Origin: an uncultured virus (IMG/VR IMGVR_UViG_3300023184_009054)
Taxonomy: Duplodnaviria > Heunggongvirae > Uroviricota > Caudoviricetes
Length of the DNA: 64,000 nt
Virus record (IMG/VR): IMGVR_UViG_3300023184_009054
Direction: 5' to 3' (one strand)
Shown: positions 1,406 to 59,033 of the stretch, piece by piece
Layout of the letters: every line of letters starts with the position of its first letter
How positions within the stretch are numbered: the first letter of the stretch is position 1
Notes under the pieces: model-generated
Seen by the model: the letters and a program-made list of their open reading frames with translations, nothing else
Told to the model about the DNA's origin: nothing
The model's database searches: none
Program-made: the position numbers and the translations under genes

Positions 1406-1469
1406 ATTATTCCTTAGTCTACATTAAAAAAACATATGCTTTATCTATCGTTTCCGATATATAATAAGT

Positions 1470-1784
1470 ATGTCAAAAACAAAAAATATGTTGTTTTGGG
1501 TGTTGTTTACAATAATACTATCGATTAGTGCCTTCGATCTCTATCTCATAGTAAGATTTCAAAATGTACTAATCGATGAAGAAAAAAACATAATTGGAAT
1601 ATGGTTAATAAGGTTAGATTCTGGTTCTGTTGCGTTGTTTTCAGCACTGAAAATGTTTGGAACATGTTTAAGTTTAATGATTTGGAAAAAAATTCTAATT
1701 AAAAATCACTTTTGGGGTTTTTTCATTGGTTTTTCATTGGTTTTGTTTCAGATATTTTTGTTCTGCTGGCTAGTTTTCTTTTAA
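1470..1784 (+). CDS. Small multi-pass membrane protein (DUF5658-like)
   Basis: Three hydrophobic segments; D..T/L...E.N..G.W pattern recalled from DUF5658; GATATATA 6 nt upstream of ATG. Confidence 0.6.
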   Translation: MSKTKNMLFWVLFTIILSISAFDLYLIVRFQNVLIDEEKNIIGIWLIRLDSGSVALFSALKMFGTCLSLMIWKKILIKNHFWGFFIGFSLVLFQIFLFCWLVFF

Positions 1785-2107
1785 TGACTATGAAAACCTT
1801 TTAACAGAATAAATCCCAATATGATAAAAATCAATCCGACCATTTGAAAATAGTTAAATGAGAATTTAAAAATCATTAATGGGATGCAATATCCAATTAC
1901 CAGAATCATAAAATCCCAATATATGCTATTAATGAGAATTTTTTCTTTGTCATCTAAAGATTTAACAAGCATAAACCAAATTACAGTTCCGCAAGTGTTT
2001 AAAAGAATTGAAACAATAAAAAACCAATGACTTTTTCTGGTTGAATCGGAAAAAGTCAAAAACATTACCAGAGTGTAAAAAATACTAGCAACAATGTAAT
2101 GCCACAT
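1781..2107 (-). CDS. Small 4-TM membrane protein (SMR/EamA-like size)
   Basis: 108 aa, four hydrophobic helices, C-terminal QMVGLIFIILGFILL; CATATATA 4 nt upstream. Confidence 0.65.
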   Translation of the reverse strand: MWHYIVASIFYTLVMFLTFSDSTRKSHWFFIVSILLNTCGTVIWFMLVKSLDDKEKILINSIYWDFMILVIGYCIPLMIFKFSFNYFQMVGLIFIILGFILLKGFHSH

Positions 2108-2126
2108 GACTTATATATGTTTTGAA

Positions 2127-3197
2127 TCATGTGTTAATATCCATTTTCTTTTTTGATTCTTCTAAACTAAATCCAAGTTGTTTGAATTCTTTCAATCTAA
2201 GAATTTGATCTAAATTTAAATTACCAGCGGATTCGGCCCATTCTTCAATTAATTCAGTTTTTAATTCCAAATCTGGATTAGAAAAACACTTAACATATTT
2301 AAACCTACTCGGCCTACTTCTTAATGCCTCGTCTATTTTTTCAATGTTATTTGCAGTCAAGATAAAAACAACTCTTTCATAAGAATTAAACACACCATCC
2401 AAACAATTAAGTATTACATCAAATGTAAACTTGATTCCCATATTGTTGCTTCCGTTATTGCCCTCTCCTATGATGCACTTTCTACCATCAAAGTAATTAT
2501 CAAAATCCTCTAAAAGAACAATCGTACCTGAAGATATCTGAGAAAACATGAACATGATGTCTATATTCGTAAATTCGGGAACGAATGTTATAATTGTTAT
2601 TGGCAAATTATGTTTAACCGCAAGATATTTTACATAAGAAGTTTTTCCATTGCCTGGTTCACCATACAAAATAGCTCCTGTTTTGGAATTGTTTAACAAT
2701 ATGTTTCCTATCTCATCATCAAAGTCTTTCCATAAACTTTCTGGAAATATAGGGTTATTGGCATATTTAATAGCTCCAATTTTATCTGTGTTCCATGGAG
2801 TTGCTATTCTAACTGGTATGCCGAATAAATTAATTTGTAATTGCTTAAGACTAACTTCTAGAAAAGTTTTTATCTTTTTGTGATTCCAACGAGTACACAT
2901 GATAGAAGTAACTAAATCCTTACCTTGAAACCCAGCTTGAAGCAATCTCTCGTAATGACTAATGTAAAACCATGGGAAATTTTTATTGAAACAAAAAGCC
3001 CTATAAACTACCGGATGTCTTATCTCAGTAAAAAACTCTTCGTCAATTATAAATTTCTTTTCATCTTTACAGATGTCATAAAGAGTTCTGAATGTGTTGT
3101 TGTCGATTCGTATTTCTATTAAAATCAAATATCTAATGATCGCCCATGTGCCAACAGCAATTCCACTCAAGGCTAATATCGGTGTCATCCAATTCAT
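2127..3197 (-). CDS. Membrane-anchored AAA ATPase (BCS1-like)
   Basis: N-terminal TM; GEPGNGKT Walker A; VLLEDFD Walker B; ILNCLDG; TANN..KIDEAL..RPSRF second region of homology. Confidence 0.85.
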   Translation of the reverse strand: MNWMTPILALSGIAVGTWAIIRYLILIEIRIDNNTFRTLYDICKDEKKFIIDEEFFTEIRHPVVYRAFCFNKNFPWFYISHYERLLQAGFQGKDLVTSIMCTRWNHKKIKTFLEVSLKQLQINLFGIPVRIATPWNTDKIGAIKYANNPIFPESLWKDFDDEIGNILLNNSKTGAILYGEPGNGKTSYVKYLAVKHNLPITIITFVPEFTNIDIMFMFSQISSGTIVLLEDFDNYFDGRKCIIGEGNNGSNNMGIKFTFDVILNCLDGVFNSYERVVFILTANNIEKIDEALRSRPSRFKYVKCFSNPDLELKTELIEEWAESAGNLNLDQILRLKEFKQLGFSLEESKKKMDINT

Positions 3198-3625
3198 ATT
3201 TGTTTACTCAAATCTAAGCGAAAAAAAATCGCTTCTTGTTGGGAAAAACCTATTTTTTTATAAAATCCAATATTTGCTTCAGTAGTAAAAAGAACTAATT
3301 TGTAGCAAGGCTCTCGCTTGGCTTGGAGAATAACATAATCTATTAGCAACTTCCCAATTCCTTTTCCTTGAAAGTCCTTGGCCACACAAACATCTTCAAT
3401 ATAACCACACTTTTCTTTGTAACGAAATTTAGATTGTAATAATAAACTAGCTGTTGCTATAATCCTATTATCATCTTCAACAACAAAAGTTTTAACTCCA
3501 CATTTGCTTCTATGTTTTAATATTTGAGAAACATCACCAGCCTCGGAATGTATTTCTCCTAATTCACTAAGACAATTCATTAATCCTTTGTTTAAATCTG
3601 ATTTTCTAAATAATCTAATTTCCAA
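3194..3625 (-). CDS. GNAT acetyltransferase, glucosamine-6-phosphate N-acetyltransferase (GNA1)-like
   Basis: GYIEDVCV, FQGKGIGKLL acetyl-CoA motif, CYKLVL, FYKKIGF; TTG start with SD AGAGGAG. Confidence 0.85.
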   Translation of the reverse strand: MEIRLFRKSDLNKGLMNCLSELGEIHSEAGDVSQILKHRSKCGVKTFVVEDDNRIIATASLLLQSKFRYKEKCGYIEDVCVAKDFQGKGIGKLLIDYVILQAKREPCYKLVLFTTEANIGFYKKIGFSQQEAIFFRLDLSKQI

Positions 3626-3665
3626 TTTTAAATCTCCTCTTGATCAAATCAAAATAATCATGCAT

Positions 3666-3694
3666 ATTATCACAAAGAAATGAATAACTGTCAA
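3666..3694 (-). promoter_or_regulatory. Sigma70-type promoter for GNAT-AAA operon
   Basis: TTGACA-N17-GATAAT on minus strand. Confidence 0.7.
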
Positions 3695-3711
3695 ACTGAT
3701 AATGGATTGCA

Positions 3712-4749
3712 ATGAAATATATAACACACATAGGTCGCAAGTTTTTAAGAAATGGTGGTGCTGAAATATTTTTAAGAAGTATTGCATCACATGAGATGTT
3801 TCAAGGCGATCTGCAATTCAGACAAAGTTTATGCATCGATAGAAACTTTTATGATAAAGAATTTTGCGAAACATTTACTCATCCTGTGTACCTTGGCGGG
3901 AAAAACGAAATAAATAAAGCGATTGAAAATGAAGATATAATCTTGTTTTGGGGAGACATTCAATTAAACAATCTTGGTATTAAAAAACCAAAAGTTTGCA
4001 TATTGTTCGTGTGTAGCGAAGAACCAAATATAGTTTCCAAAAATTCAGACTATATTACACATTGCATCGCTTCATCAAAGAGAGCAGCACTAATTTCGTG
4101 TGGCAACATACCATATACAGTAATTCATGCTGGTTTTGACAAAACAAGATTAACACCAACAGAAACTAGAGATTCACAAAGAAAAAAAATGAATTTGAAT
4201 GATGATGATTTCTTAGTTGGCATGATCTCAAGAATTGGAGACAACAAAAGACAATTTTGGCTTATGGAAGCAATTCAAAAAATAAAATCAGAAAAAATAA
4301 AAGCAGTTTTTGTTGGTGGTGGAAAAGATTTAAAAAAACTTAAAAATATGAATGTAAGAAATTGCTTGTTTGTCGGCCATCAAGATGATGTCGCAAATTG
4401 GTATCTGTCTATGGATGCTTTTTGCATATTGTCAAAAAGCGAAGGAGGGCCAACAACCTTATTCGAATCGTCTTACATGAGAGTTCCATTGATACATACA
4501 GAATTTGCATTTACAAAAGAATTATGCAATAGTTATAATTCTTTTTTTGTAAGAGATGTTAAAGATTTGGTGGAAGTTATAAAAACAATGTATTCATTGG
4601 GAAGAGAAAATTTAAAAAAATATACAGATAATAATTATCGTATATACGAAGAGTTTGGAAATATAGAAAAGTCGGCAACAAATTGGTATAGAACAATTAA
4701 AAATGTGGTGGCAAAAAAAGAAAGAGAAGATTGCAGATTACTTTTATAA
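3712..4749 (+). CDS. Glycosyltransferase family 4 (GT-B)
   Basis: GGAE, ISRIGDNKRQ, FVGHQDDV, SKSEGGPTTLFES. Confidence 0.9.
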   Translation: MKYITHIGRKFLRNGGAEIFLRSIASHEMFQGDLQFRQSLCIDRNFYDKEFCETFTHPVYLGGKNEINKAIENEDIILFWGDIQLNNLGIKKPKVCILFVCSEEPNIVSKNSDYITHCIASSKRAALISCGNIPYTVIHAGFDKTRLTPTETRDSQRKKMNLNDDDFLVGMISRIGDNKRQFWLMEAIQKIKSEKIKAVFVGGGKDLKKLKNMNVRNCLFVGHQDDVANWYLSMDAFCILSKSEGGPTTLFESSYMRVPLIHTEFAFTKELCNSYNSFFVRDVKDLVEVIKTMYSLGRENLKKYTDNNYRIYEEFGNIEKSATNWYRTIKNVVAKKEREDCRLLL

Positions 4750-5361
4750 TCTACTTCTTTTTATTTTTTTTAAGTTTTTAATGTCCGAAGAACTTTGCTT
4801 ATAATCTTCTTTAATCAAATCCATAAATTTTTCTTTTAAGTCTTCTGGTATTGACATTAAAATCTTATCAATCAATTTATAATCAATGTAAAAAGTTCCT
4901 AATTTTACAAGTCCAAACTCACTGGAAAATCTTTTATAAAAATCATGATACATAATTTTTAAAGATGCAAATTCAGTGCTAAATTCTAAAGCAACAGGGT
5001 TTTCCTTGTCTATTACAGTCTTTATTGATTTTAAAGCTTCTGAATATACTTTATACGGATTCATGCTTTTTCCACTAGGAGAAAGTTCATCTTTAGCACC
5101 TTCTAATGTCATAAAAACAACATAGGTTGGTCTTGTTAATTCGTCTTTAAATTTATTTTCATATTTGAATAAGTCTGGCATTTTTTGAAATAGAAAATCT
5201 TTAACTCCTCTTGGATGCCTTATGAAATTCATTTTATATTTTTCGTTTTCGGAAGCATAGAAATGATAATCATATTGCCACTTACTTCCCTGTAATGCTA
5301 CTGGCTTAAAATCCGACAAGACTGACCGCAATTCATTTATGTATTGATAAAACGATTTCAT
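4744..5361 (-). CDS. Hypothetical, putative head internal protein; paralog of 5478..6227
   Basis: N-terminus MKSFYQYINE; shares P..VY...K.VI...NP.A...SL...Y..FYK block with neighbour. Confidence 0.65.
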   Translation of the reverse strand: MKSFYQYINELRSVLSDFKPVALQGSKWQYDYHFYASENEKYKMNFIRHPRGVKDFLFQKMPDLFKYENKFKDELTRPTYVVFMTLEGAKDELSPSGKSMNPYKVYSEALKSIKTVIDKENPVALEFSTEFASLKIMYHDFYKRFSSEFGLVKLGTFYIDYKLIDKILMSIPEDLKEKFMDLIKEDYKQSSSDIKNLKKIKRSRL

Positions 5362-5477
5362 GAATGTATATATATTTCACCAAGGCATTCTCAAGTGATT
5401 ATAATTAAAACTATTAGTCAATTTAATGAAATTATTGGTTTAACTTTTCAAACCATTTCTAAAATAAACTACGACAT

Positions 5478-6227
5478 TTAAGATGTTTTGTTTTTATGAA
5501 ACATTTTAAATTTTCTTATTTTAGAAACATAAGATTTTTTTTCTAAATCTACATCTTGTATTATTTTGATAAATTTGTCTGGTAAAGTTTGGTCTATTTT
5601 TCTTGAATCTCTTATTATGCTATCAATCTTATCTTTATTTATATAAAAGTCAGATCCGACAAAAGCGTATTGGGTATGAAGATAATATTTGTAAAATCTA
5701 TCATATATCGATATTAGACTTGGGTCTTGGTCATTGGGAGTTATCCAGAATGCATCAGGATTCTTTTCCTCGATGACCTTTCTGGTTGCCACAATCACAT
5801 TGGCATATACAAATAATGGATCGCTTTCTTCAAATTTACCAAATTTTGGAGTAAAATTACTTTTTTCACTATATAAATCTAATTTAAAAATTGCTTTTAA
5901 ATTACTTAAAAATATATCATTAATTTTTTTACCTAAATCAGAATCCTTCTCTATTGAAAGTTTTGCGAGGAACATCTTAGCAATTTCAGACGATAATCTT
6001 CTGCCGAAATTTTCAAATTGAACTTCATAATTGTCAGAATGCTCAATATCATATTCTTTTGATTTAAATTGATATCCAAAACCAGTACCAAAATTAGACA
6101 ACTTGACAGAACCAAGTGGTGCTTGCATTGCTGGGTATGATTTTCCGGTTATGGGATCAGTCCAATTAAATGAAACTTCTTGTAACAAAGCTTCAATAAG
6201 GTAATTTTTAAAATCCAATTTGAACAT
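5478..6227 (-). CDS. Hypothetical, putative head internal protein; paralog of 4744..5361
   Basis: N-terminus MFKLDFKNYLIE; shared C-terminal block; GATAAATA 4 nt upstream. Confidence 0.65.
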   Translation of the reverse strand: MFKLDFKNYLIEALLQEVSFNWTDPITGKSYPAMQAPLGSVKLSNFGTGFGYQFKSKEYDIEHSDNYEVQFENFGRRLSSEIAKMFLAKLSIEKDSDLGKKINDIFLSNLKAIFKLDLYSEKSNFTPKFGKFEESDPLFVYANVIVATRKVIEEKNPDAFWITPNDQDPSLISIYDRFYKYYLHTQYAFVGSDFYINKDKIDSIIRDSRKIDQTLPDKFIKIIQDVDLEKKSYVSKIRKFKMFHKNKTS

Positions 6228-6230
6228 ACA

Positions 6231-6698
6231 TTATTTATCTAAGATTTTGTATTTTTCTTGCAAATAAGCAAGCAATTCTTTTTGCTCTTGATCTAAAGTC
6301 TTATTTTTGTCGAAAAGTATTTCATATTTTTTCTGCATTTCTTGGAATGTTTCTCTTTTTCTCTTAATTGGAAATTCAGTTTTATAGTATTGGATATCAT
6401 CTGCAATATCGATGGAATCCAAAAAAGAACTATAATCTACGGCAAAACCTATTCTTTTTTCAGAGTATTTAAGAACTCTCATATCAACACTTTTGGTTGG
6501 TATCTTTCTAATTTCAGCAATAGTGTATTTAATTTCATTGGTTGCAATTGATGGTTTTGAATTTGTCTTTTTATTGAATTCATGGATCAAATCGTTGAAT
6601 TTAATCCAATAATTTTTAGTTGAGACTTCAGTATTTGTAGAAGTTTCAATTTTTCCTTGCGACAACAATAAAAATATAACTGAAAATAAAGAACACAT
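6231..6698 (-). CDS. Hypothetical exported/membrane-anchored helical protein
   Basis: Start reassigned to MCSLFSVIFLLL (SD AGGAG); N-terminal hydrophobic segment. Confidence 0.6.
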   Translation of the reverse strand: MCSLFSVIFLLLSQGKIETSTNTEVSTKNYWIKFNDLIHEFNKKTNSKPSIATNEIKYTIAEIRKIPTKSVDMRVLKYSEKRIGFAVDYSSFLDSIDIADDIQYYKTEFPIKRKRETFQEMQKKYEILFDKNKTLDQEQKELLAYLQEKYKILDK

Positions 6699-6814
6699 GA
6701 AAATTCTCCTTGGGTTTGTTTTCATAAGGATAATTTGATTTGTTTCATTTGTCAATCGATCTTGCTTTAATATTATAAATGATTTAAAATTCATTCGTTC
6801 AAAGGAGAAAAAAC

Positions 6815-7333
6815 ATGAACGAACTTGAAAATCCAGTGGCATTAGGAATCACAATAACTCTTGACCCAACCGAACAGTTAATTTGCAAAGCTATCGCTAA
6901 AAAAAGATATCAAAATGCAAGAAGTATGAATGTCAAAAACTCTAAAATTGGTGATCAATCTAATGAGCAGACTGATCTTGAAGGCGTTTCATCTGAATTA
7001 GCGTTTTGTAAGATGTTCAATGTATATCCCGATCTAACAGTACAAGTTAGATCGTCAATAGATGGCACAGATCAAGGTGATGCTGTGTTGCGTGATGGAA
7101 GAACTGTCGATGTAAAAAGCACAAGATATTTCACAGGAAGACTCCTTGCTGTAAGATGGAAGAAACAAAATGTCGATTTGTTCGCTCTAATGATAGGAAC
7201 TTTCCCAACATATACATTTAAGGGATTTATGAAAAGTGAAGAGCTTTTAAAAGAAGAAAGAATAGGTAATTTAGGTCACGGAAATGGCTACATAGCACAA
7301 CAGCATGAACTTAAAGATCTTGAAAATATATGA
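6815..7333 (+). CDS. Hypothetical, possible PD-(D/E)XK-fold protein
   Basis: SD AAGGAG; ELAF...GD....TVDVKST pattern. Confidence 0.55.
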   Translation: MNELENPVALGITITLDPTEQLICKAIAKKRYQNARSMNVKNSKIGDQSNEQTDLEGVSSELAFCKMFNVYPDLTVQVRSSIDGTDQGDAVLRDGRTVDVKSTRYFTGRLLAVRWKKQNVDLFALMIGTFPTYTFKGFMKSEELLKEERIGNLGHGNGYIAQQHELKDLENI

Positions 7334-7345
7334 AATAGGAGTCGC

Positions 7346-8707: not shown

Positions 8708-8901
8708 TAAGCGTACCCTGCCTTTCTGTCTATTTCGATAATCATATTCAATACTTTTTCTACCTCACTAAGCATCTCTGCTTTAGTTCCGTAGAATCTA
8801 AAATCTCCAAAATCATGGGCGATATCCCAAGGATAATTGGGTGATAACCTCTCTGCCTCAACATGAACACCATCTGAAGTATCAAAAACTATTTTTTTCA
8901 T
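8707..8901 (-). CDS. Hypothetical protein
   Basis: 64 aa, in operon. Confidence 0.6.
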   Translation of the reverse strand: MKKIVFDTSDGVHVEAERLSPNYPWDIAHDFGDFRFYGTKAEMLSEVEKVLNMIIEIDRKAGYA

Positions 8902-11649: not shown

Positions 11650-11657
11650 TATAAATA
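11650..11657 (+). promoter_or_regulatory. T4-type late promoter (exact TATAAATA), exemplar of the nATAnATA motif
   Basis: TATAAATA 5 nt upstream of ATG 11663; variants at 1456, 2112, 5367, 6232, 13331, 26043, 32885, 38325, 48498, 56385. Confidence 0.75.
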
Positions 11658-13324: not shown

Positions 13325-13370
13325 ATGATTTATATATGATTTTTCAAAATTTAATTAAAAAATATAAAAG

Positions 13371-19278: not shown

Positions 19279-20139
19279 TCAAAAATTATTCGCAGAAATA
19301 AGAAGTGTTTGATCTGCCATTAGTATCCAAGACTGCAAAAAGTAAGCATTTGGTAAACTTTTTTGTTCCATTTCTCGAAGTAAAACTTTTGCATTTTCGT
19401 TTATTTTATTTAAATTTTCATGGTCATTATTCAACTGAACAAGAATTTTAATGTTATCTACCAAATCATAATACTGAAGAATTAAAGATTCATACATTTT
19501 TTTAGGCTCTAAGTAGAAGTATTTCAAAATATTTTCAACACAATCATTTGAATGTAGCTGTCCATTTGAATGATGCAACCATCCAGCACACATTAAGTCT
19601 ACTTTTTCATTCGGCTTTAAATTTATATCATATGCAGCCTCCTGTGTCATGGAGTACAAATGATTTTTTAATGGAATTTTTCCAAAAAATATATCATCCT
19701 TATGTAATTCTAAGGATTCATACTTTGACTTTCTAATATCTTTATTTATAAAATATTCTTGAACAAAAACCTTGCATTTTCTACAAATTCCATCGCCAAC
19801 TAAATCATTTTGACTTTCATTGTAAAAATCATGACTACAAGATTTTATTTTTTTAAAGTTATCATATGCATCATCCTCGGCAATTTCTATTTTTTTACCT
19901 CTTCCGGTAATCCATATTCTTGGCCTTTGCCATTTTTCAAGTATAAATATATTTGGCAAATTTATACTTTCTGGTATTTGTACATTAGCAGCAAATAAAT
20001 ATTTGTCTTTTTTATCTTTTTTTGAATAAAGATTTTTATATTTCAAATAATTTATTTCAGATTCTTTTATCTGAACAATCGCATCTTCGCCCCAATCCTT
20101 GGAACTTGAATATTCGATTTCTATGTTGTTAGAGTACAT
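19279..20139 (-). CDS. Hypothetical protein
   Basis: 286 aa; CSH...CRKC possible Zn site. Confidence 0.65.
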   Translation of the reverse strand: MYSNNIEIEYSSSKDWGEDAIVQIKESEINYLKYKNLYSKKDKKDKYLFAANVQIPESINLPNIFILEKWQRPRIWITGRGKKIEIAEDDAYDNFKKIKSCSHDFYNESQNDLVGDGICRKCKVFVQEYFINKDIRKSKYESLELHKDDIFFGKIPLKNHLYSMTQEAAYDINLKPNEKVDLMCAGWLHHSNGQLHSNDCVENILKYFYLEPKKMYESLILQYYDLVDNIKILVQLNNDHENLNKINENAKVLLREMEQKSLPNAYFLQSWILMADQTLLISANNF

Positions 20140-21052
20140 TTTTACAATCCGTATTTTTCACAGTTTGACGCATGGAAATCAAAAACTTCTCTTTTAACTG
20201 CCTTACTCTTTCCTTTGTTATCTCCAACAAGCAACTTATTTCTTCGAGATTTTTTCTTTCTTTTCCATTAATGCCAAAATAATGTTCAATGATTAAAATC
20301 TGCCTGTTGATATCTCTTGTATTAAGTCTTTTTTTTGCAGTTTCAATAACACGATTGATAAATATTGCATTTTCTTTTTGATGCACTTCTGATGTAAGGA
20401 ATGTTTCTGCCGAATTTTGACTTTCTGTTTGATTATCATCAATGCTGTAGAACTCATTTTTTTTATTTTTTTTAAGGTTAATCATTCTGAAGAAGTTTTT
20501 ACGGAGAACCCAAACACAATATGTGCTAAACTTATTTCCAAGAGTGTAATTAAAATAATCAACAGATTTTATCACATCCATATAGGCATCTGACAAATAA
20601 TTATCCAGATTGCGTTTTTCTCTATAATTTTTAAAATCGTTTTTCAAAATGTGTGTCGCCAAACGAAAATTAGAACTTGCTATCTTGTTACGCAAATCAT
20701 ATATTTTAATTTGTAGATTTTCTATTTTTTTTATTTTTGTTTTAATCGATTTTTTGCAATTCAATTTTTCAATTAGATTTTTAGCTTTGAATTTAAAAAA
20801 GTTAAGTTGTTTGAAAAGATGATATTCTTGTTCCCTTGTAAGAAGTGGCTCTTCGTAACAAGGTCTCATTTCTGGTTGTTTGTTTGCGTTTCTAAGATTT
20901 AAAACCTTCTTTGACTCTAAATCAAATTTATGTTTGTCTGGTATATCGTCTAATATTTTTTCACTTGTAATCTTTTTATCAAAATCGACATGATGGAAAT
21001 ACTTTAAATTTGTCCTTAATATAGATTCTTTCCTTTCTTCAATCGCTTGCAT
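20129..21052 (-). CDS. RNA polymerase sigma-70 family factor
   Basis: PLLTREQEYHLFKQLNF (region 1.2), SNFRLA, DYFNYTLGNKFSTY..W (region 2), LEEIS..LEITKERVRQL (region 4.2). Confidence 0.92.
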   Translation of the reverse strand: MQAIEERKESILRTNLKYFHHVDFDKKITSEKILDDIPDKHKFDLESKKVLNLRNANKQPEMRPCYEEPLLTREQEYHLFKQLNFFKFKAKNLIEKLNCKKSIKTKIKKIENLQIKIYDLRNKIASSNFRLATHILKNDFKNYREKRNLDNYLSDAYMDVIKSVDYFNYTLGNKFSTYCVWVLRKNFFRMINLKKNKKNEFYSIDDNQTESQNSAETFLTSEVHQKENAIFINRVIETAKKRLNTRDINRQILIIEHYFGINGKERKNLEEISCLLEITKERVRQLKEKFLISMRQTVKNTDCKNVL

Positions 21053-26034: not shown

Positions 26035-26059
26035 CTCAATAATATTTATGCTGTAAAAG

Positions 26060-26090
26060 AAAAAACCCCATCATAAAGATGGGGTTTTTT
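26060..26090. terminator. Bidirectional intrinsic terminator
   Basis: A6-CCCCATC-ataaa-GATGGGG-T6. Confidence 0.9.
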
Positions 26091-32880: not shown

Positions 32881-32900
32881 GTATTATTTATGCATGAAGT

Positions 32901-32931
32901 AAAAAAAAAGGAGCGTTTTTCAACACTCCTT
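32901..32931 (-). terminator. Intrinsic terminator
   Basis: GGAGTGTT-gaaa-AACGCTCC-T9 on minus strand. Confidence 0.8.
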
Positions 32932-38317: not shown

Positions 38318-38356
38318 ATTATCTTATCTATGATTATGACTTTATAATTGACTAAT

Positions 38357-48497: not shown

Positions 48498-48505
48498 TAT
48501 ATATA
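48498..48505. promoter_or_regulatory. Palindromic late-promoter-like octamer between divergent genes
   Basis: TATATATA in a 20-bp gap, 8 nt from ATG 48489(-) and 4 nt from ATG 48510(+). Confidence 0.65.
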
Positions 48506-52034: not shown

Positions 52035-52041
52035 GTTTTTC

Positions 52042-52599
52042 TCAAACTTTAGAAGCCAAACAACAAAATATTTTATTACCTTCAAATTTAGGAGCAACTT
52101 CTACTGTTGAATATTCAGACAAACTATCAATCAGTTTTTTAACAAGATTAAAACCATTGTCAATGTGATTTAATTCTCTTCCGCCTTTAAATTGAACAAT
52201 ACAGTGAATCTTGCAGCCTTCTTGTAAAAACTTCTTTGCATGATTAACTTTTGTCATAAGGTCATTTTCTGCAATTGATGGTCTAAATCTCAATTCTTTA
52301 AATTGTATTTGAGATTCCCTTTTCTTTTTGGCACTCTCTTTATCTTTTACCTTTTTTTCATATTTGTATTTAGCATAATCCATAATTTTGCAAAGTGGAG
52401 GATTAGCATTTGGAATAACTTCCACTAAATCAAAATTAGATTCTTCTGCAAGCCTTCTTGCATTTTCAGTTGACATAATTCCAAGCTGCTCTTCATTTCT
52501 TACGACTCTTACAGTAAGAACTCTAATTTGATAATTTATTCTAAGTTCGCTAGGTTTTTTTGGATCTTTATCATAATTCCGATAATTCTGATGATGCAT
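52042..52599 (-). CDS. infC: Translation initiation factor IF-3
   Basis: RINYQIR...VRVV...QLGI...A...DLVEV.PNANPPLCKIMDY.KYKYE; KELRFRP.I..ND..TK...KFL..G. Confidence 0.96.
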   Translation of the reverse strand: MHHQNYRNYDKDPKKPSELRINYQIRVLTVRVVRNEEQLGIMSTENARRLAEESNFDLVEVIPNANPPLCKIMDYAKYKYEKKVKDKESAKKKRESQIQFKELRFRPSIAENDLMTKVNHAKKFLQEGCKIHCIVQFKGGRELNHIDNGFNLVKKLIDSLSEYSTVEVAPKFEGNKIFCCLASKV

Positions 52600-54146
52600 T
52601 AAATACTTTCCTTGGTAAATGTCACATTTATAAGACTAATTTCTTTAGATTTCAGAGATGTAGATATAACGCTGTCTAATTCATCTTTGTTAGATACAAT
52701 AAATCCATTGCCGAAATTAAAAAATTGCTTAAACTTTTCAATATTATAAAATTTATTCATGTTATTACTTAGTATAAAAATTATAGGATTAAGTTTATTT
52801 TGAAACAAAGTGTGCAATTCGATCATGGAAATATTAAATGAATTTTCACTCAACAATACAATTGGTCTAAGTTCTGGCCTTGATAGTTGTAAGCCCAAAG
52901 ACCCCGGAATTGCAAATCCTGTAGAGTAATGAAATGCAGGGCTAAAAAATCTATTTTCATAAACCCTCAATCTGGAAGCACTTGTGAGGAAATCGCCAGC
53001 ATCAGCTATTATTGCCAAATTATTATCTTTGCATATAAGATCATTGATTTTATTGAAAAAATATTTTTCAGAAATGTATTCGTTATTTTTACAATCATCA
53101 AAATATTCATTATTTTTATAATTTTCAATTTTTGACTTAGAAAGAAAATTTATTTCAAATAAAGAATTACAAAAATCAGAAAATGTTACATTATTGTAAA
53201 CATGATTCTTTATATAAAGACCTTCAGTAGAGCAAAAAACAACATGCCTTTTAGTAAATCTTGGAGATTGAAATCCAAGAGTCACATCTGATAAACATTC
53301 TCCAAAAACCAACAGACAGTCAGATTGATCTATGATTGCATTCACATTTTCATCAGATGTTTTAGATCCGCAATAAACCCCACGAAACAAATGATTGTTC
53401 TCATCAACTGAACTTTTTCCAAGCAATGTTGTCATAAATGGAATATTGTGCTTTTCTGCAAATCTAACAATCTTTTTGCTTAGTCCATATCTTATAATTT
53501 GAACGCCTATTAATATCACAGGGCTTTTACTTTCGGCAATCCAATCTGAAGTTTCTTTTATTGAATCCTGTAATGTTTCTTTGTCACTTGTTTTGCTATT
53601 TGGAGTTCCATCACGATAAACATCATATCTGATTGGTGTATTAGCTACATCTATAGGAAGCTCTAAATAAATAGGCTGCTTGTTTTTCACAAGTGCCTCC
53701 AATCCCTCATCGATAGCCAGACCTGCTTTTGTAGCATCATTTAAAATAGTCGAATAACAAGTAATGTTTTTAAATATTTTCTGTTGGTTGTCAAAACTTC
53801 TCACGACATGATGTAATAAAAAATCTTCATTCCTTGATTTTATAGGAGGTGACATGGATATCACAATGACTGGTGATTTCTCTGAGTATGCACCCGCAAT
53901 TGAATTACAAAGCTTTAAAGCTCCAGCATTGTAATTCGCACAAACGCAACCAGTTCCTTGAATCCTAGCGTAAATGTCAGCAGCAAATCCAGAACTGTTT
54001 TCATCTTTATTGGCAATAAATTTTATTTTAGAATTATTATTTATATTTTCTATGAAATTATTATTGTGACCACCAACAACTCCAAAAATGTGTTTAACAC
54101 CAATGTTTTCAAGCCTTTCAATCAAAAAATTTGAAACTAGTGACAT
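52599..54146 (-). CDS. Pyruvate/indolepyruvate decarboxylase-like protein with degenerate ThDP motif
   Basis: ERL..GV.HIFG, DE..GFAAD.YARI, AGAYSE..PV, LLHH, PIYLELP; GDG motif replaced by SEN. Confidence 0.85.
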   Translation of the reverse strand: MSLVSNFLIERLENIGVKHIFGVVGGHNNNFIENINNNSKIKFIANKDENSSGFAADIYARIQGTGCVCANYNAGALKLCNSIAGAYSEKSPVIVISMSPPIKSRNEDFLLHHVVRSFDNQQKIFKNITCYSTILNDATKAGLAIDEGLEALVKNKQPIYLELPIDVANTPIRYDVYRDGTPNSKTSDKETLQDSIKETSDWIAESKSPVILIGVQIIRYGLSKKIVRFAEKHNIPFMTTLLGKSSVDENNHLFRGVYCGSKTSDENVNAIIDQSDCLLVFGECLSDVTLGFQSPRFTKRHVVFCSTEGLYIKNHVYNNVTFSDFCNSLFEINFLSKSKIENYKNNEYFDDCKNNEYISEKYFFNKINDLICKDNNLAIIADAGDFLTSASRLRVYENRFFSPAFHYSTGFAIPGSLGLQLSRPELRPIVLLSENSFNISMIELHTLFQNKLNPIIFILSNNMNKFYNIEKFKQFFNFGNGFIVSNKDELDSVISTSLKSKEISLINVTFTKESI

Positions 54147-54153
54147 AATTTTC

Positions 54154-54936
54154 TCATATCTCTGATGTTGGACTATCTGAAATTTTTAAAATATAGCCTT
54201 CGGCATCTACTGGGAATCTTCTAATCCATTCGATGTTGGGAGGTATGTTGCAGTGATAGTCAATATTGCTAGGATCTATAAAACTTGGAGTTACCGATAA
54301 TGATTCTAAGTTTAGTGGCACAACCATTTTCATGAGTTTAAATTCTAAAAAGTAACAACCTGGAAAACAGGTGTCTCCATTTTTCCATGGATATACGAAA
54401 TAACTTTCTTGTAAAACATCTTTAGTTGTCATTCCATCAACGCCAATCACATCTTGGTAGACCATTTCTGTTTGGGCAGAAGAATTCATAAACTTTATAA
54501 TTTTTATAGGTTGACCTTTTTTCCAATTTTGAACAATTGTTCCATGATAACCTCTTTGTACTTGAATGTAATAATTAGATTCATCAAAGGCGGTTACCAA
54601 CAAATGCTCCGTCTGTCTTGGTCTATCAACTATTATAACATCACCAATCATAATCTGATTAAATCCAATATTGTCAGCAAGGGAAAAATATGTATCTGTG
54701 CTGCTGACTGCAAATTTGAATTTCCCATTTGACCACATCGAAGCTTCTAACACGAGATCGGTAAGATCTAAAGGACCATCACAATCTTCAATCTTTACTT
54801 TAAAATCAGGCTTTGTATCGTTTCTTCTCAGAGTGAAGTCGGGGCATACACCACTTTTACAACCATATTGGTCAATGCATCCGCTACTCTGACCCGTGTA
54901 TTTGTTTGAATTGCAACTCATATAATATTTATCCAA
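54154..54936 (-). CDS. Putative virion/baseplate protein (BppU-like N-terminus)
   Basis: FTLRRNDTKP...PLDLT...Y.W..GDT..PG.Y.LEF; likely start MSCNS at 54921. Confidence 0.6.
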   Translation of the reverse strand: MDKYYMSCNSNKYTGQSSGCIDQYGCKSGVCPDFTLRRNDTKPDFKVKIEDCDGPLDLTDLVLEASMWSNGKFKFAVSSTDTYFSLADNIGFNQIMIGDVIIVDRPRQTEHLLVTAFDESNYYIQVQRGYHGTIVQNWKKGQPIKIIKFMNSSAQTEMVYQDVIGVDGMTTKDVLQESYFVYPWKNGDTCFPGCYFLEFKLMKMVVPLNLESLSVTPSFIDPSNIDYHCNIPPNIEWIRRFPVDAEGYILKISDSPTSEI

Positions 54937-54940
54937 TCCC

Positions 54941-55378
54941 TTAAAATATCTCAGCTTGTTGTATTAAAAATATGTAATCCTTTATCCAATGAAGGTTTCC
55001 ATCGTATTTTTGCAAATCTATATTTGCACTTAAACACAACTGCTCGACTTCATTATTTATCACTTCTGTTTCAATATAAACAATTTTTTTCACCAAAGAA
55101 TTAGCTAAAATTATCAAAGATTCAAATAATGGCGTGTAAGTTAAATAAAGAATACCAGAAACATCAAAAATTTTAAGATTAGTAAACAAATATATTTCTG
55201 GCTCTAAAACAAATATACCTTGCTCAGAACTAATGCCTTTGGGCTTATTCTCAGAACTAATATAAATTATATTATTTGTGTCACAAAATAACGCTATTTT
55301 TCTTTGCTTAGATTTAACTGATGATAGAAGAGCAATTCCAATATGATAATCATCATTTTTCAATCTCTGAACTTCCAT
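54941..55378 (-). CDS. dCMP-deaminase-fold protein lacking Zn ligands
   Basis: Y..IALLSS..S, LEPEIY (for HAE), LYLTYTPLFES (for LY.T..PCxxC), VKKIVY. Confidence 0.65.
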   Translation of the reverse strand: MEVQRLKNDDYHIGIALLSSVKSKQRKIALFCDTNNIIYISSENKPKGISSEQGIFVLEPEIYLFTNLKIFDVSGILYLTYTPLFESLIILANSLVKKIVYIETEVINNEVEQLCLSANIDLQKYDGNLHWIKDYIFLIQQAEIF

Positions 55379-55789
55379 TTAATCACCAACCATTTGAAGA
55401 AATTCAACGGATAAATTGTCATAGTCATTAATATTTATAAAATCTTTCAACAATTTCTTTTGTGTTCTGTCCATGAGTTTCATACAAATTTTTGAAGAAA
55501 GTGGAATTTTTATTTCCCATGAATTATGAATATGCAAACAAGCCACTCCTTGGATGCTTCCCAATCTATAATAATCAACACATTCTTTTACATAAAAATC
55601 AGATGCACAATCGTATGAATAGCCACTAATAGCTATTCCTTTTTCGCATGGTATATTTAACAATTTGTTTTTGCATGGATTGATATTATCTATAAAAACC
55701 GCAACAAGATATGTTGTTTGACTTACATCCAAAGAAATATTTAATTCTTTTTTTTGCAATTTACACAATGAATTTAAATTCGTAGCCAT
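55379..55789 (-). CDS. Hypothetical protein
   Basis: 136 aa. Confidence 0.65.
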   Translation of the reverse strand: MATNLNSLCKLQKKELNISLDVSQTTYLVAVFIDNINPCKNKLLNIPCEKGIAISGYSYDCASDFYVKECVDYYRLGSIQGVACLHIHNSWEIKIPLSSKICMKLMDRTQKKLLKDFININDYDNLSVEFLQMVGD

Positions 55790-55837
55790 AACCTATTCTA
55801 ATGCTGATTTAAATCTATTTCAATTATAAATTTAGCC

Positions 55838-56380
55838 TTATTTTTTAATTACTTTTTTAATTACTTTCTTAATTACTTTTTTAATTACCTTCTTATCATC
55901 CTTCTCAACCACCTTCTTATCATCTTTTTTAGCTACTTTCTTATCGTCTTTCTTAGCTACTTTCTTATCGTCTTTCTTGTCATCTTTTTCAGCTTCTTTG
56001 CTTTCATCATCCTCTACGCTAACACCATGTTTTTTCATGATTTCTTTCATTTTATCTTGTGTTTCTTTTTTATTTTTCAACAGCTTTAATTCCCAAATAT
56101 CTTTAGCCAAAAACTCAATCGAAGACATAAACTTGTCAAAATTCAAATCTCTTGGCATAGGCTTTTTAGCCTCTCCAATCATATGGCTTTTCTTTTTGTG
56201 TCTTTTCTTTTTGTGACTTTTCTTTAATGCCTTTTTCAATCTTGTGACTTGCCAAGGAGGTGGAGTTCCATGGCCAAATATGTCCGCAACAGGGGGAGCC
56301 AAGCCTAATGCAGCTTGTGTTTTAATCCTTGTTGCTGAACTTGATTCTTTTACTTTCAAAAAATTAGAAAATGTTATCAT
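55838..56380 (-). CDS. Lys-rich protein, putative head internal protein
   Basis: MITFSNFLKVKE; KKDDKKVA and KKVI repeats; CATAAATA 4 nt upstream. Confidence 0.7.
   Translation of the reverse strand: MITFSNFLKVKESSSATRIKTQAALGLAPPVADIFGHGTPPPWQVTRLKKALKKSHKKKRHKKKSHMIGEAKKPMPRDLNFDKFMSSIEFLAKDIWELKLLKNKKETQDKMKEIMKKHGVSVEDDESKEAEKDDKKDDKKVAKKDDKKVAKKDDKKVVEKDDKKVIKKVIKKVIKKVIKK
55841..55990 (-). repeat. Coding tandem repeats (24-bp and 12-bp units)
   Basis: KKDDKKVA-type units followed by four KKVI units. Confidence 0.8.
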
Positions 56381-56387
56381 GCCATAT

Positions 56388-56705
56388 TTATGCTTCGGGA
56401 AATGAGTTTAATGAGAATTTTCCACTTTCTATTTCAGAAAGAAATTCTAAATTCATTTCCTTTTTAGCCTTACGATGTGAGTCTTCTATCAATTTGAATC
56501 TAGAATACATAAATTGCATATATCTTTTTTTACAAAAAATACCAGTATGATCTACAAAGTTATCATAATTTCCAAATACCAAAAGATATGAAATAAAATT
56601 TTCTTGTATTCCAGTAGAAAAATACTTCATAAGATACCTCTTATCTTTTGGTATCTTGTAATCAAAAAATTCACCTGAGATAAACAAAGCATCATTATTA
56701 GACAT
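56388..56705 (-). CDS. Hypothetical protein
   Basis: 105 aa. Confidence 0.65.
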   Translation of the reverse strand: MSNNDALFISGEFFDYKIPKDKRYLMKYFSTGIQENFISYLLVFGNYDNFVDHTGIFCKKRYMQFMYSRFKLIEDSHRKAKKEMNLEFLSEIESGKFSLNSFPEA

Positions 56706-57102
56706 TAATCTTTATACCTTTAACATATTTCAAATATATAAGCATCATTCCGCCAGCAAATTTTTGAGGTATTCCACTTTTGCATAATAAATTTAATGTC
56801 TCATTAACAATTTTAATATCTTCCGTTATATCTCCTATTTTTTTTAATTCAACAAAATTTGAATCTTTCATAGAATCATAAGCAATCTTTACACCATCGA
56901 TTAAAGTGGTTGAAGATACCATTGAGATTTTTCTAGGGTCTGTTAATATATATTTTGGAACTTTTCCACCACAATGCATGATTTTATCAGCAAAAAATCT
57001 ATCAATACAAGACTTTAAAAAGTCTTTTGAATTCTCCGAAATTGCATTTGCACTATCATTTATATCATTTTCAAAATCATCATCAAAATCTTCATTTTGC
57101 AC
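56698..57102 (-). CDS. Hypothetical protein
   Basis: 134 aa, GTG start, SD AAGGAG. Confidence 0.65.
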   Translation of the reverse strand: MQNEDFDDDFENDINDSANAISENSKDFLKSCIDRFFADKIMHCGGKVPKYILTDPRKISMVSSTTLIDGVKIAYDSMKDSNFVELKKIGDITEDIKIVNETLNLLCKSGIPQKFAGGMMLIYLKYVKGIKINV

Positions 57103-57169
57103 AGTAAACTCCTTTTCAACTTAAACAAAATTACAAAGAATAATCTACATACTTAAAACAGGAGGTCAA

Positions 57170-57676
57170 ATGAAAAAAACACTTTTCATCATTATTTTTA
57201 TAATTTTTATTTCTGGCTGTGGTAATTTCAATCCTCGTCTTCAAAATAGGATAGCTAACGAGAATGGTAAAATTGAAGACATTAGAAATAATCAAAATGG
57301 ATTTATGCTTGAGTTAGGAAAACTTCGTAACGAAGCACAAATACAAAACTCACAACTCAAAGAGGTGCAGCAGGGAATGTTGAACATGAACAATGCCTTA
57401 TCTCGCAATGAAAACAGTGGAATACAAATACTTCAAGGAGATGGATCGCTTATGCTTATATTCGCTTTGGCATCAATCGGTATGTTGCTTTTTTACTATA
57501 GAAATAAAGCAAATAATAATGAAAAAATTGCCAATATGCTTGCTGTAGAAGTGGCTAGATTCAATGACCCAAATTTAAATGATAACATTTTAAGAACTTC
57601 CATGTTTACCTCGGTTGAATCAAAAGTGTTCAAACTATTGAACACGCATGCAAAGAAGATATCACCGAAATCTTAA
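57170..57676 (+). CDS. Lipoprotein with coiled coil and internal TM
   Basis: MKK-hydrophobic-ISGC lipobox; N/Q-rich helix; TM SLMLIFALASIGMLLFYY; SD GGAGG. Confidence 0.75.
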   Translation: MKKTLFIIIFIIFISGCGNFNPRLQNRIANENGKIEDIRNNQNGFMLELGKLRNEAQIQNSQLKEVQQGMLNMNNALSRNENSGIQILQGDGSLMLIFALASIGMLLFYYRNKANNNEKIANMLAVEVARFNDPNLNDNILRTSMFTSVESKVFKLLNTHAKKISPKS

Positions 57677-57685
57677 AAGTAAAGT

Positions 57686-57967
57686 CTAAAGAATATCATA
57701 TCCTTGAACAATGTTTTTAAGCTTAATATATCCTGAGCAATTGTCACCCAAAGGAACTTTTTGCGAATGTGGATTTTTGCCTTTATTTTTCGACTCTTTT
57801 AAAAATTCCACAACTCGCTTGTCAATAATTGCTTTTTTTTCTGCAATTAATTTGAGGCAGTAATGTTTAGATGGATCGAGATCATCCTTCTCCAAGTACT
57901 TACACATACCACTAGGACTTGAGATGGAGCCAGAACAAACATTTTTTATTTGCTTTAAACTTAACAC
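57686..57967 (-). CDS. Small Cys-containing hypothetical protein
   Basis: Probable GTG start just after def; C...CKYL...YCLK...DNC. Confidence 0.6.
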   Translation of the reverse strand: MLSLKQIKNVCSGSISSPSGMCKYLEKDDLDPSKHYCLKLIAEKKAIIDKRVVEFLKESKNKGKNPHSQKVPLGDNCSGYIKLKNIVQGYDIL

Positions 57968-57968
57968 A

Positions 57969-58469
57969 TTAATTCCTATGAATGTAAATTGGCTTACCAA
58001 TTTGTGAAATTAAAATTCCATTTTGATGATCTATTTCATGTTGATAAATAATAGAATTGAAATTATCAACATCTTCCTCAAATTCACTAATTACGAGCAT
58101 TGGATTATTGTCAGAAACCAATAGCCTTTTACCTTTTATCTTAATTTTTTCAAATCTGTCAACTTCGTACCTTTGAAGATTTCCATTAGAATCTTTCAAA
58201 GACAGACACCCCTCAATGGATTTAACCTTTTCTCCAACACCTTCATAACTACAATGAAAAAAATATTCATTTTTTTTTAAATTAATGATAACAAAAAAAT
58301 CATATGGAATTCCAACTTGGACTGCTGACAATCCGACCCCATTGTTATCAAGGCAAATTTGCTCCATATGCATCCCAAGCTTGTATAAATCCAAAAGATT
58401 ATCAGTTGGAGTTATACATGCTAAAGGAATATCTTTGGTGTCTACTAATCGCAAAGACTTAAAGTCCAT
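57969..58469 (-). CDS. def: Peptide deformylase
   Basis: GVGLSAVQ, EGCLS, QHEIDH motifs all present. Confidence 0.95.
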   Translation of the reverse strand: MDFKSLRLVDTKDIPLACITPTDNLLDLYKLGMHMEQICLDNNGVGLSAVQVGIPYDFFVIINLKKNEYFFHCSYEGVGEKVKSIEGCLSLKDSNGNLQRYEVDRFEKIKIKGKRLLVSDNNPMLVISEFEEDVDNFNSIIYQHEIDHQNGILISQIGKPIYIHRN

Positions 58470-58470
58470 A

Positions 58471-58734
58471 TTAGTCCTTTAAAGATGATAAAGTTTTTAC
58501 GATTAGCTCTACCCTTTGGTCAATCCAACTCTTCAACATGACTTTTTCTTTGCGAAGGTCTTTTGGAATCTTCAAAACAACCATGTCAACATTATCTTCT
58601 TCATTTAAGAATTTGTCTGCTAAATCACGAATCAATTTAGAAACAGACACATCCCTTTTCTTTGCTACAATCTTTAGCCTGTCTTGAATATCCAAATCCA
58701 TAGACAAGCTCATGATATTAACTTTCTTAGCCAT
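58471..58734 (-). CDS. Ribbon-helix-helix (CopG-like) DNA-binding protein
   Basis: MSLSMD..IQDRL..VAKKRDVSVSKLIRDL. Confidence 0.8.
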   Translation of the reverse strand: MAKKVNIMSLSMDLDIQDRLKIVAKKRDVSVSKLIRDLADKFLNEEDNVDMVVLKIPKDLRKEKVMLKSWIDQRVELIVKTLSSLKD

Positions 58735-58742
58735 AAAATCTC

Positions 58743-59033
58743 CTATACTTTTTTGTTTCTACGAAAAGGCTTATTATCTTTCTTTTCAGTTTTTCGATTA
58801 GGAAAATTTTCTCGCAACTTCATTTTAAGTCTTTGAAGTTCTGCATCTCTTTTCTTTTTTCTCTTTTTCTTAGATTCGCTTTCATAGAACTCATGCTCTT
58901 TATAATCATGCAGCACTCCAGCATCTGTTACTGCTTTTTTAAAAGTTGCAAACATTCTTCTAAATGCAATTTCCCTTTCATCTCTAGAACAATTTGGATG
59001 CATATCCCTTAGTTCCACTCTTACATTTCTCAT
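58743..59033 (-). CDS. rpsU: Ribosomal protein bS21, divergent
   Basis: FRRMF..FKK.V..AGVL.DYKEHEFYE..S.KKRKK. Confidence 0.85.
   Translation of the reverse strand: MRNVRVELRDMHPNCSRDEREIAFRRMFATFKKAVTDAGVLHDYKEHEFYESESKKKRKKKRDAELQRLKMKLRENFPNRKTEKKDNKPFRRNKKV

Follow-up and report, generated by a model that had tools for sequence, protein, structure and literature searches.

Late promoters of phage T4, of the form TATAAATA, are read by gp55 together with gp33 and the gp45 clamp, and RNA synthesis begins 5-6 nucleotides (nt) downstream of the box. Among phages, lambda cI transcribed from pRM is an example of a leaderless mRNA, according to the available part of PMC10491246. In the accessible portions of the respective articles, huge phages are reported to carry IF1, IF3 and S21, the last with N-terminal extensions, and ribosome hijacking is proposed (Al-Shayeb 2020, PMC7162821), bS21 expression is tied to late replication in Bacteroidetes phages (Chen 2022, PMC9723584), and S21 and peptide deformylase (PDF) are core genes of pelagimyophages (Zaragoza-Solas 2020, PMC7029224). 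While late promoters of the T4 type, messages without leaders and ribosomal genes on phage genomes are all known individually, full-text searches of the literature, with supplements and subscription journals lying outside their scope, gave no description of a phage-wide gene set with a late-type promoter abutting the start codon. Here, we analyzed a stretch of 64,000 nt from an uncultured Caudoviricetes virus (IMG/VR record IMGVR_UViG_3300023184_009054; hereafter the window), in which a box ATAnATA stands 4-8 nt before the ATG of a set of genes and in which IF3 and bS21 are also encoded. We consider it likely that this box is a T4-type late promoter in a leaderless layout, with messages starting at or beside the AUG.

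Relatives of the window were found in IMG/VR via IF3 and via alignment of a protein of 731 amino acids (aa; 43252-45447). Contig G002 (165,207 bp) matches the window with ~93% identity over G002 27669-90420, which is too close for testing the conservation of an 8-mer. Homologues of the 731-aa protein led to contigs G004 (136 kb, 33.5% GC) and G005 (189 kb, 50.2% GC) at 42-45% identity. These three contigs are fragments with a CheckV completeness of 28-39%; G002 is 34% complete, and the genome is therefore expected to be near 480 kb. A complete relative is the published phage LR756511.1 (595 kb, 42% GC), which shares with the window a module made of a homologue of the gene starting at 54921, a thiamine pyrophosphate (TPP) enzyme, IF3, a 423-aa gene, DnaJ, PDF and bS21. 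Megablast of positions 50000-60000 and tblastn of the 731-aa protein against a phage collection gave no matches, a protein atlas queried with IF3 pointed to several unlike groups (Spirochaetota, viruses, Bacteroidota) without indicating a host, and the available part of a paper on aquatic 'moraphages' (PMC12619734) held nothing matching the features of this clade. Sequence of the part of the window from 1400 to 11399 occurs in 20 public sequencing runs, all of them DNA runs, which belong to 14 lake and freshwater studies.

The preliminary description had listed 12 starts with an octamer nATAnATA 4-8 nt upstream of the ATG, and we observed the octamer at the given spacing at all 12. Compared with the composition-matched expectation, the signal lies in the position before the ATG and not in the total number of copies, since ATAnATA occurs 97 times on both strands against 95.5 ± 11.3 in 100 shuffles, without overall enrichment. 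Using the longest-ORF starts of 106 greedily chosen open reading frames (ORFs), we obtained 12 matches for spacers of 4-8 nt and 0-2 for every other spacer from -33 to +60. An ATG opening at least 50 codons follows 15 of the 97 copies at 4-8 nt (15.5%), compared to 0.8-4.0% for 15 control AT-rich words, and ATAnATA ranks first in the window among the 64 AT-only words of the form 3+N+3 (runner-up 4.0%, median 1.5%). An unbiased scan for 6-mers enriched before starts returned two classes only, SD (Shine-Dalgarno) words and ATA-type words. One could suppose that AT-rich words simply fall before starts in 70%-AT DNA, or that the TAA stop within ATAAATA marks gene junctions; the total count, equal to the shuffle expectation, agrees with this, as does the slightly raised score of TAA-containing words (3-4%). 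We give this composition reading virtually no credence and rejected it on the word ranking (15.5% versus at most 4.0% for the other 63 words), on shuffles made within each intergenic region (mean 0.76 matches and maximum 5 in 200 shuffles versus 9 observed) and on the persistence of the signal in relatives of 42% and 50% GC; moreover, the signal is missing from T4, RaK2, Atu_ph07, Syn9 and S-PM2, which have 32-41% GC.

In the relatives, ATAnATA again ranked first in G002 (21/208), G004 (15/191) and LR756511.1 (39/364), and second in G005 (12/90), where the box reads [CG]ATA[ACGT]ATA and is conspicuous against GC-rich flanks. The same layout was observed in HTVC008M, a cultured T4-type phage of the pelagimyophages with an annotated late sigma factor, on 14 annotated starts, the spacing being exactly 5 nt in 10 cases. 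The layout is thereby conserved from 30%-GC to 50%-GC relatives, in a 595-kb genome and in a cultured pelagiphage. When single bases of the box were substituted in the AT-rich contigs, the first A alone tolerated change (to C or G) and all other substitutions scored at most 2.3%; the counts in G005 were small, with two substitutions at 3.4% and 5.7%. At three orthologous places (G002 29129, G002 74933 and G004 70965), the exact box is replaced by TATAACTA or TATATCTA, whose fifth core base is C; genome-wide, however, ATAnCTA is not enriched before starts (1/155 and 0/37). Over 46 sites in the window, G002, G004 and G005, the spacing was 4 nt in 16 cases, 5 nt in 14, 6-8 nt in 13 and 3 nt in 3, and in LR756511.1 it was exactly 5 nt at 19 of 36 sites. 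No conserved -35 element was found upstream of the box at the 46 sites. A weak T bias lies 15-16 nt upstream of it (T in 30 and 28 of the 46 sites; approximately ATTT in G005), which could be a second weak promoter element or could partly reflect the U-runs of terminators. A sigma-70 consensus scan gave as many matches as shuffled sequence (109 vs 109.1, 101 vs 102.4 and 97 vs 113.2) and is therefore uninformative on promoters here.

The boxes of the window are the following, the first base of the octamer being given in brackets:
1457..1463, plus strand: (G)ATATATA, 6 nt before the ATG at 1470 (gene 1470-1784, 104 aa, no family)
2112..2118, minus strand: (C)ATATATA, 4 nt before the ATG at 2107 (gene 1781-2107, 108 aa)
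5367..5375, minus strand: TATATATA in two registers, 5 or 7 nt before the ATG at 5361 (gene 4744-5361, 205 aa), retained in G002
6232..6238, minus strand: (G)ATAAATA, 4 nt before the ATG at 6227 (gene 5478-6227, 249 aa), retained in G002
11651..11657, plus strand: (T)ATAAATA, 5 nt before the ATG at 11663 (gene 11663-12067, HAD-type phosphatase)
13331..13337, minus strand: (C)ATATATA, 6 nt before the ATG at 13324 (gene 12767-13324, methyltransferase)
26043..26049, minus strand: (C)ATAAATA, 8 nt before the ATG at 26034 (gene 25738-26034, 98 aa), retained in 4/4 orthologous places
32885..32891, minus strand: (C)ATAAATA, 4 nt before the ATG at 32880 (gene 32524-32880, 118 aa)
38325..38331, minus strand: (C)ATAGATA, 7 nt before the ATG at 38317 (gene 37901-38317, 138 aa, DUF5872-like)
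48498..48505, no strand assigned: palindromic TATATATA in a 20-nt gap between the divergent genes 48163-48489 (minus) and 48510-48863 (plus)
54926..54932, minus strand: (G)ATAAATA, GATAAATA, 4 nt before the ATG at 54921 (gene 54154-54921, 255 aa)
56385..56391, minus strand: (C)ATAAATA, 4 nt before the ATG at 56380 (gene 55838-56380, 180 aa)

Motif-led genes make up 13 of ~103 genes in the window, about one in eight. All 12 motif-led ORFs with a counterpart in G002 (13 ORFs in all) showed a third-codon-position bias of substitutions and are therefore real genes. At the orthologous starts of 2107, 26034, 32880 and 54921, where the proteins are 42-70% identical, the box is retained despite changed spacers and flanks. 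The box at 1470 heads a divergent unit and has one-mismatch variants at the orthologous places of G002 and G005. At 2107 it is retained in 3 of 3 places, as CATATATA in G002 and as TATATATA at 6 nt in G004, and at 32880 in 4 of 4, the G005 version being CATATATA. The 6227 box overlaps the end of the upstream gene, while the 56380 box contains the stop codon of the upstream gene and is exact in 3 of 4 places, G004 having TATAACTA. A TTGACA lies 16 nt upstream of the 11663 box. This start is supported as the true one because the upstream ATG at 11606 is lost in G002; its box shows turnover, standing 5 nt out in the window and G002, 38 nt out with a TAGGA SD in G005, and being absent from G004. 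The single shared TATATATA between the divergent genes serves 48489 and 48510, at 8 nt and 4 nt from the respective ATGs; for these two starts, the preliminary description had given no octamer. On the 48510 side, the window and G005 have the exact box, whereas G002 (TATATCTA) and G004 each differ from it by a single base.

The list of the preliminary description stood as far as the presence of the octamer is concerned, with one omission and two weak members. It had missed 54921, the true start of a gene whose longest ORF begins at 54936; this box is retained in 4 of 4 orthologous places, the gene heads the run TPP enzyme - IF3 - 423-aa gene, and its LR756511.1 homologue starts at 328977 behind AATATATA plus 5 nt. 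The weak members are 48489, with the motif in 1 of 4 orthologous places (the window only), and 38317, with the motif in 1 of 2 (G002 has AGGA 4 nt before the ATG and no box).

We then considered the sequence context of the starts. As had been claimed, the octamer-led starts lack an SD, since of 11 motif-led starts 10 have a pairing energy between 0 and -0.7 kcal/mol, and the contrast with clpX and a GNAT gene was confirmed. ClpX (start 23675) follows TTGATT-17-TATAAT and the GNAT gene (start 3625) follows TTGACA-17-GATAAT, both sigma-70-type promoters with TG, and the SD pairing of these genes reaches -9.3 and -9.0 kcal/mol, respectively. About half of the genes of the window are SD-led, and GTG and TTG starts occur among them (e.g. 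3625, 9141, 57102). By comparison, the codon opening a long frame 4-6 nt past the box was ATG in 61 cases, and GTG and TTG fell outside the 12 commonest codons, the twelfth of which occurred 3 times. AUG is required for leaderless initiation. The base at -1 was a pyrimidine at 36 of 41 motif-led starts, versus 155 of 275 SD-led starts (p = 6e-5) and 152 of 293 other starts (p = 7e-6), and at 53 of 61 motif-led starts in a second count; bacterial RNA polymerase prefers start sites of the type Y(-1)R(+1). The genes described here combine a promoter-like box, set at a short and fixed distance, with an AUG start and the lack of an SD, a combination reportedly put forward as the genomic signature of leaderless genes in the GeneMarkS-2 paper.

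Two of the boxes stand directly behind predicted terminators:
26059..26090, minus strand: terminator hairpin and U-run, ~9 nt upstream of the 26043-26049 box (-18.2 kcal/mol, z -6.1)
32908..32931, minus strand: terminator hairpin with a T9 run, 8 nt upstream of the 32885-32891 box (-13.8 kcal/mol, z -4.9)

The orthologues of 26034 have hairpins of -20.6 (G004) and -24.2 kcal/mol (G005) whose inner stem sequences differ, and the 32880 place in G004 has a hairpin of another sequence (-16.6 kcal/mol). Overall, the folds range from -13.8 to -24.2 kcal/mol (z -4.9 to -7.5); they were assessed as single folds, MAFFT consensus folds having given one compensatory pair each with misaligned stems. At 26034, 32880 and their orthologues, the hairpins end 8-11 nt before the box, and therefore no room is left for a -35 element or a leader. 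Another gene, a GT2 glycosyltransferase (23736-24494, minus strand), has a terminator hairpin (-16.0 kcal/mol), TATAAT, 6 nt and the ATG within 24494-24545, i.e. a canonical -10 hexamer in a leaderless-type position, with no SD (pairing -2.4). In G005, we counted 17 intergenic boxes more than 8 nt from a start, versus 4.6 ± 2.2 in shuffles, and an SD is then present. The box farther upstream is accompanied by an SD, and the unit can therefore be used both with a leader and without one, as expected of a promoter.

These observations also bear on the possibility that the box acts in RNA, AUAnAUA being an SD-independent ribosome-binding or enhancer element within longer transcripts, perhaps for ribosomes carrying the phage bS21. 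A tightly fixed distance between box and ATG resembles that of a ribosome-binding site (RBS), several boxes lie inside tight operon junctions, and the layout co-occurs with bS21 in two lineages. We nevertheless hold an RNA element to be improbable in view of the U-run terminators that end just before the box in two gene families, in up to four genomes each, and of the same box 11-60 nt upstream of genes with a normal SD. In addition, the pyrimidine at -1 suits a start site and not an RBS, other AT-only words show no comparable effect, and the box generalises the T4 late promoter, with gp55-family genes in LR756511.1 and HTVC008M.

According to the promoter reading that we favour, (A/C/G)TAnATA would form the core of a T4-late-type promoter that has a -10 element only and is probably read by the host RNA polymerase with a phage gp55-like factor. 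With the box ending 4-5 nt (range 3-8) before the ATG at roughly one in eight window genes, RNA would start at, or a few bases from, the A of the AUG, and the message, having no room for an SD, would be translated as a leaderless or near-leaderless mRNA. The geometry and the sequence context fit the earlier claim that messages start at or beside the AUG; we infer promoter activity, start site, box-reading factor and expression timing from DNA sequence.

The assignment of the box to the T4 late type was supported, as TATAAATA fits nATAnATA, a conserved -35 element was not found and LR756511.1 has a gp55-family ORF. T4 gp55 belongs to phrog_234, which matched two ORFs of LR756511.1, one of 186 aa (E 7.4e-8) and a second one (1.8e-5). 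No phage polymerase subunits were found in PHROG scans of 106 window ORFs, 95 G002 ORFs outside the window region, 111 G005 ORFs and 8 of 49 G004 ORFs (the last two sets being ORFs of at least 120 aa outside that region). An alternative candidate for the reader of the box is encoded in the window itself:
20129..21052, minus strand: diverged sigma-70-family gene, 307 aa, with regions 2 and 4

This gene (TIGR02937 47.1 vs 42.9 bits; phrog_351) stands behind TATAAT and a GAGG SD, and its product is 52-53% identical in G004 and G005.

Several points weigh against a promoter in a leaderless layout. The commonest spacing, 4 nt, combined with the T4 geometry puts +1 on the U of the AUG, and at this spacing initiation would need to be shifted by one base to an earlier position. 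The 20 public runs include no RNA run, and the start site is deduced. The starts 2107, 6227, 54921, 56380 and perhaps 38317 are located in tight same-strand junctions, where translational coupling could also dispense with an SD. Among the 12 listed sites, 48489, 38317 and 11663 are poorly conserved. Regarding the reader, the 186-aa ORF of LR756511.1 matches T4 gp55 by BLASTP at only E 0.01, no gp55-family match was found in the window, G002, G004 or G005, all of them fragments, and a search with phrog_223 (gp45) matched nothing anywhere, controls included, and is uninformative.

The genes led by the box were also compared. In the window, 0 of 13 motif-led genes is structurally annotated, their products being a methyltransferase, a HAD phosphatase or proteins with no assigned function, and family and PHROG profile scans recognised no virion genes among the 106 ORFs. 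Box-driven genes in G002, G004 and G005 include methyltransferases, an HNH endonuclease, a glycosyltransferase, a helicase and PhoH, the last two in G005. Two of the G005 sites (172819 and 173638) are tandem paralogues of 260-262 aa, one of them an FkbM-type methyltransferase, with a common upstream stretch that reads ggcgcggaaac, [GC]ATA[CG]ATA, aaac and then ATG; the tandem duplication took the putative promoter along with the gene. The 29 motif-led genes scanned in LR756511.1 include a neck adaptor (E 6e-13), an endolysin-like protein (5e-8), a weak match to a DNA end protector (6e-5), a LAGLIDADG endonuclease and a polynucleotide kinase-like protein. In HTVC008M, 7 of the 14 layout genes are annotated virion parts, and a further two are a DNA end protector and a member of a curli-type assembly set; baseplate genes, the tail tube cap, a neck adaptor and a tape measure are among the 14. 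A late timing of the box-led genes would follow by analogy with T4.

The preliminary description had further paired this layout with the phage IF3 and bS21, which would retune host ribosomes toward leaderless messages. The two genes are located as follows:
52042..52599, minus strand: phage IF3 gene, ATG behind an AAGGAA SD (TIGR00168 162.8 vs 60 bits)
58743..59033, minus strand: phage bS21 gene, 96 aa, behind an AAGGTG SD (PF01165 34.4 vs 27 bits)

Both IF3 domains were recovered (PF05198 94.9 bits, PF00707 85.4 bits), with E 1.4e-37 to the solved chain 5me0_Y, and the IF3 copies of G004 and G005 are 54-56% identical. For bS21, TIGR00030 passed by a narrow margin (30.6 vs 28.95), and the best solved chain was 8rd8_NV at E 1.5e-5. 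The 96 aa of the phage protein compare with 51-88 aa in the matched bacterial chains, the extra residues lying on both sides of the Pfam match 26-65. Of the proteins compared with G004 and G005, it is conserved best, with 82-90% identity versus 43-72% for the others. IF3 and bS21 are both SD-led genes, IF3 in all four contigs. In the window and G002, bS21 is preceded by a box at 17 nt, which was dropped as a bS21 promoter because G004 does not retain it.

We surveyed seven T4-type phage lineages for the two genes and for the ATAnATA score, with its rank among the 64 words; IF3 presence was judged among the best 60 of 61 IF3 matches, and 400 of the 490 kb of Atu_ph07 were scanned:
Window clade: IF3 present, bS21 present, 15/97 (window), rank 1
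HTVC008M: no IF3 annotated, bS21 annotated, 16/193, rank 1
Atu_ph07: IF3 present, PF01165 match of 47 bits, 9/450, rank 24, gp55-family gene
RaK2: IF3 present, no PF01165 match, 8/534, rank 22, gp55-family gene
T4: IF3 not among the matches listed, no PF01165 match, 0/158, rank 64
Syn9: IF3 not among the matches listed, no PF01165 match, 1/87, rank 48
S-PM2: IF3 not among the matches listed, no PF01165 match, 2/143, rank 31

The pairing with IF3 was contradicted, RaK2 and Atu_ph07 having IF3 and a gp55-family gene without the layout. The layout is found in one of three IF3 lineages and also in HTVC008M, where no IF3 is annotated; therefore, IF3 does not track the layout. For bS21, two of three bS21 lineages have the layout versus none of the four without bS21, and Atu_ph07 is a counter-example. 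The layout tracks bS21 loosely, and the link is only suggestive (Fisher p = 3/21 = 0.14, computed by hand over the seven lineages, with host clade as a confounder). The most telling contrast of the survey is that between HTVC008M and the cyanophages Syn9 and S-PM2, which belong to its family and have neither a bS21 match nor the layout; their hosts differ. In RaK2 (138350-139414) and Atu_ph07 (244-2066), the IF3 gene adjoins a gene for an ATP-dependent (Clp-type) protease, and in Atu_ph07 the bS21 match (489120-489257) and IF3 are close together on opposite sides of the origin of the circular record.

That IF3, bS21 and the layout form one functional unit for the retuning of host ribosomes is, in our judgement, unlikely. 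In its favour, IF3, bS21, PDF and the box are all retained in the window clade including LR756511.1, IF3 lies within the gene run headed by the motif-led gene 54921, and the strong conservation of bS21 and its distribution over the lineages point the same way. The IF3-bearing phages at ranks 22 and 24, the layout of HTVC008M and the bS21 match of Atu_ph07 oppose it, as does the SD that leads IF3, bS21 and about half of the window's genes. Moreover, IF3 disfavours leaderless mRNA in E. coli, where ribosomes without bS21 still translate leaderless mRNA and where extra IF3 and bS21 should favour SD-led, not leaderless, initiation. A further proposal, in which we place little confidence, is that bS21-bearing T4-type phages (the window clade and HTVC008M) moved part of their late promoters against the start codon, the phage bS21 made during infection altering the anti-SD region of host ribosomes and thereby favouring leaderless phage messages over SD-led host messages. 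If true, translation initiation would be divided into two modes by the virus itself.

Besides IF3 and bS21, the window (30% GC, 96% coding, with most genes on the minus strand) encodes ClpX, DnaJ, a Cpn10-like protein, CsrA, PhoH, PDF, the sigma-70-family protein, many glycosyl- and methyltransferases and HNH endonucleases. IF3, bS21, PDF, DnaJ, ClpX, CsrA and the sigma-like gene are all present in both G004 and G005. The CsrA homologue (27761-27961, minus strand; TIGR00202 80.4 vs 70.1 bits), of which the G004 and G005 copies are 61-65% identical, is another post-transcriptional regulator in this phage. The contig fragments carry T4-like replication genes for a UvsX-like protein, a gp32-like single-stranded DNA-binding protein (SSB), endonuclease VII and a DnaB-like helicase. 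The family-B DNA polymerase of G002 (phrog_405) consists of two ORFs ~9 kb apart, 91874-94612 and 103926-105272, which match profile positions 441-1067 and 51-439, and the larger piece also occurs in G005. Two genes of the window are missing from the 93%-identical G002, the methyltransferase 12767-13324 together with its own box and an N6/N4 DNA methylase (35536-36462); the segments without a G002 counterpart are 12758-13356 and 35547-36452, and the two genes look like recent gains or losses. Part of an HNH endonuclease gene (17413-17839 of 17282-17872) has second matches in G002 at 80-82% identity with the order swapped, which suggests paralogous or rearranged copies.

With the box taken into account, start-codon calls can be improved, the longest-ORF rule having mis-called 54921 and 11663, and transcription units of huge phages become predictable from sequence. 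The long-standing question of the purpose of phage bS21 becomes testable in a cultured system.

Compared with the known systems, this clade resembles the huge phages and pelagimyophages in its translation genes, IF3, bS21 and PDF being present here too. Unlike here, leaderless messages and the distance from promoter to start are not mentioned in the available parts of these accounts (PMC7162821, PMC7029224), and the layout is what is added here. The late promoters of phiKZ and AR9 are read by multisubunit polymerases of the phages themselves. The available part of PMC5312081 shows a likeness in phiKZ, where a short promoter motif, TATG, adjoins the start site and its G is the start, and a difference in AR9, whose leaders measure 26-491 nt. 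Bacterial leaderless genes resemble the genes described here in that they start with ATG, lack an SD and have a promoter-like box whose short distance to the start codon is fixed. However, the octamer fits no register of a sigma-70 hexamer with both A-11 and T-7, and, unlike isolated bacterial leaderless genes, the genes form a phage-wide set under one special promoter. The closest likeness in sequence is to the T4 late promoter, an AT-only box of 8 bp without a -35 element of which TATAAATA is an instance of nATAnATA, with the difference that any of the four bases can occupy the centre here and that C or G usually stands first. The two also differ in placement: in T4, none of the 158 ATAnATA copies precedes a gene start by 4-8 nt (rank 64 of 64), and 21 of the 24 copies of TATAAATA with a gene start within 120 nt are 13-34 nt away, whereas distances of 4-8 nt account for 13 of 29 in the window and 27 of 119 in LR756511.1.

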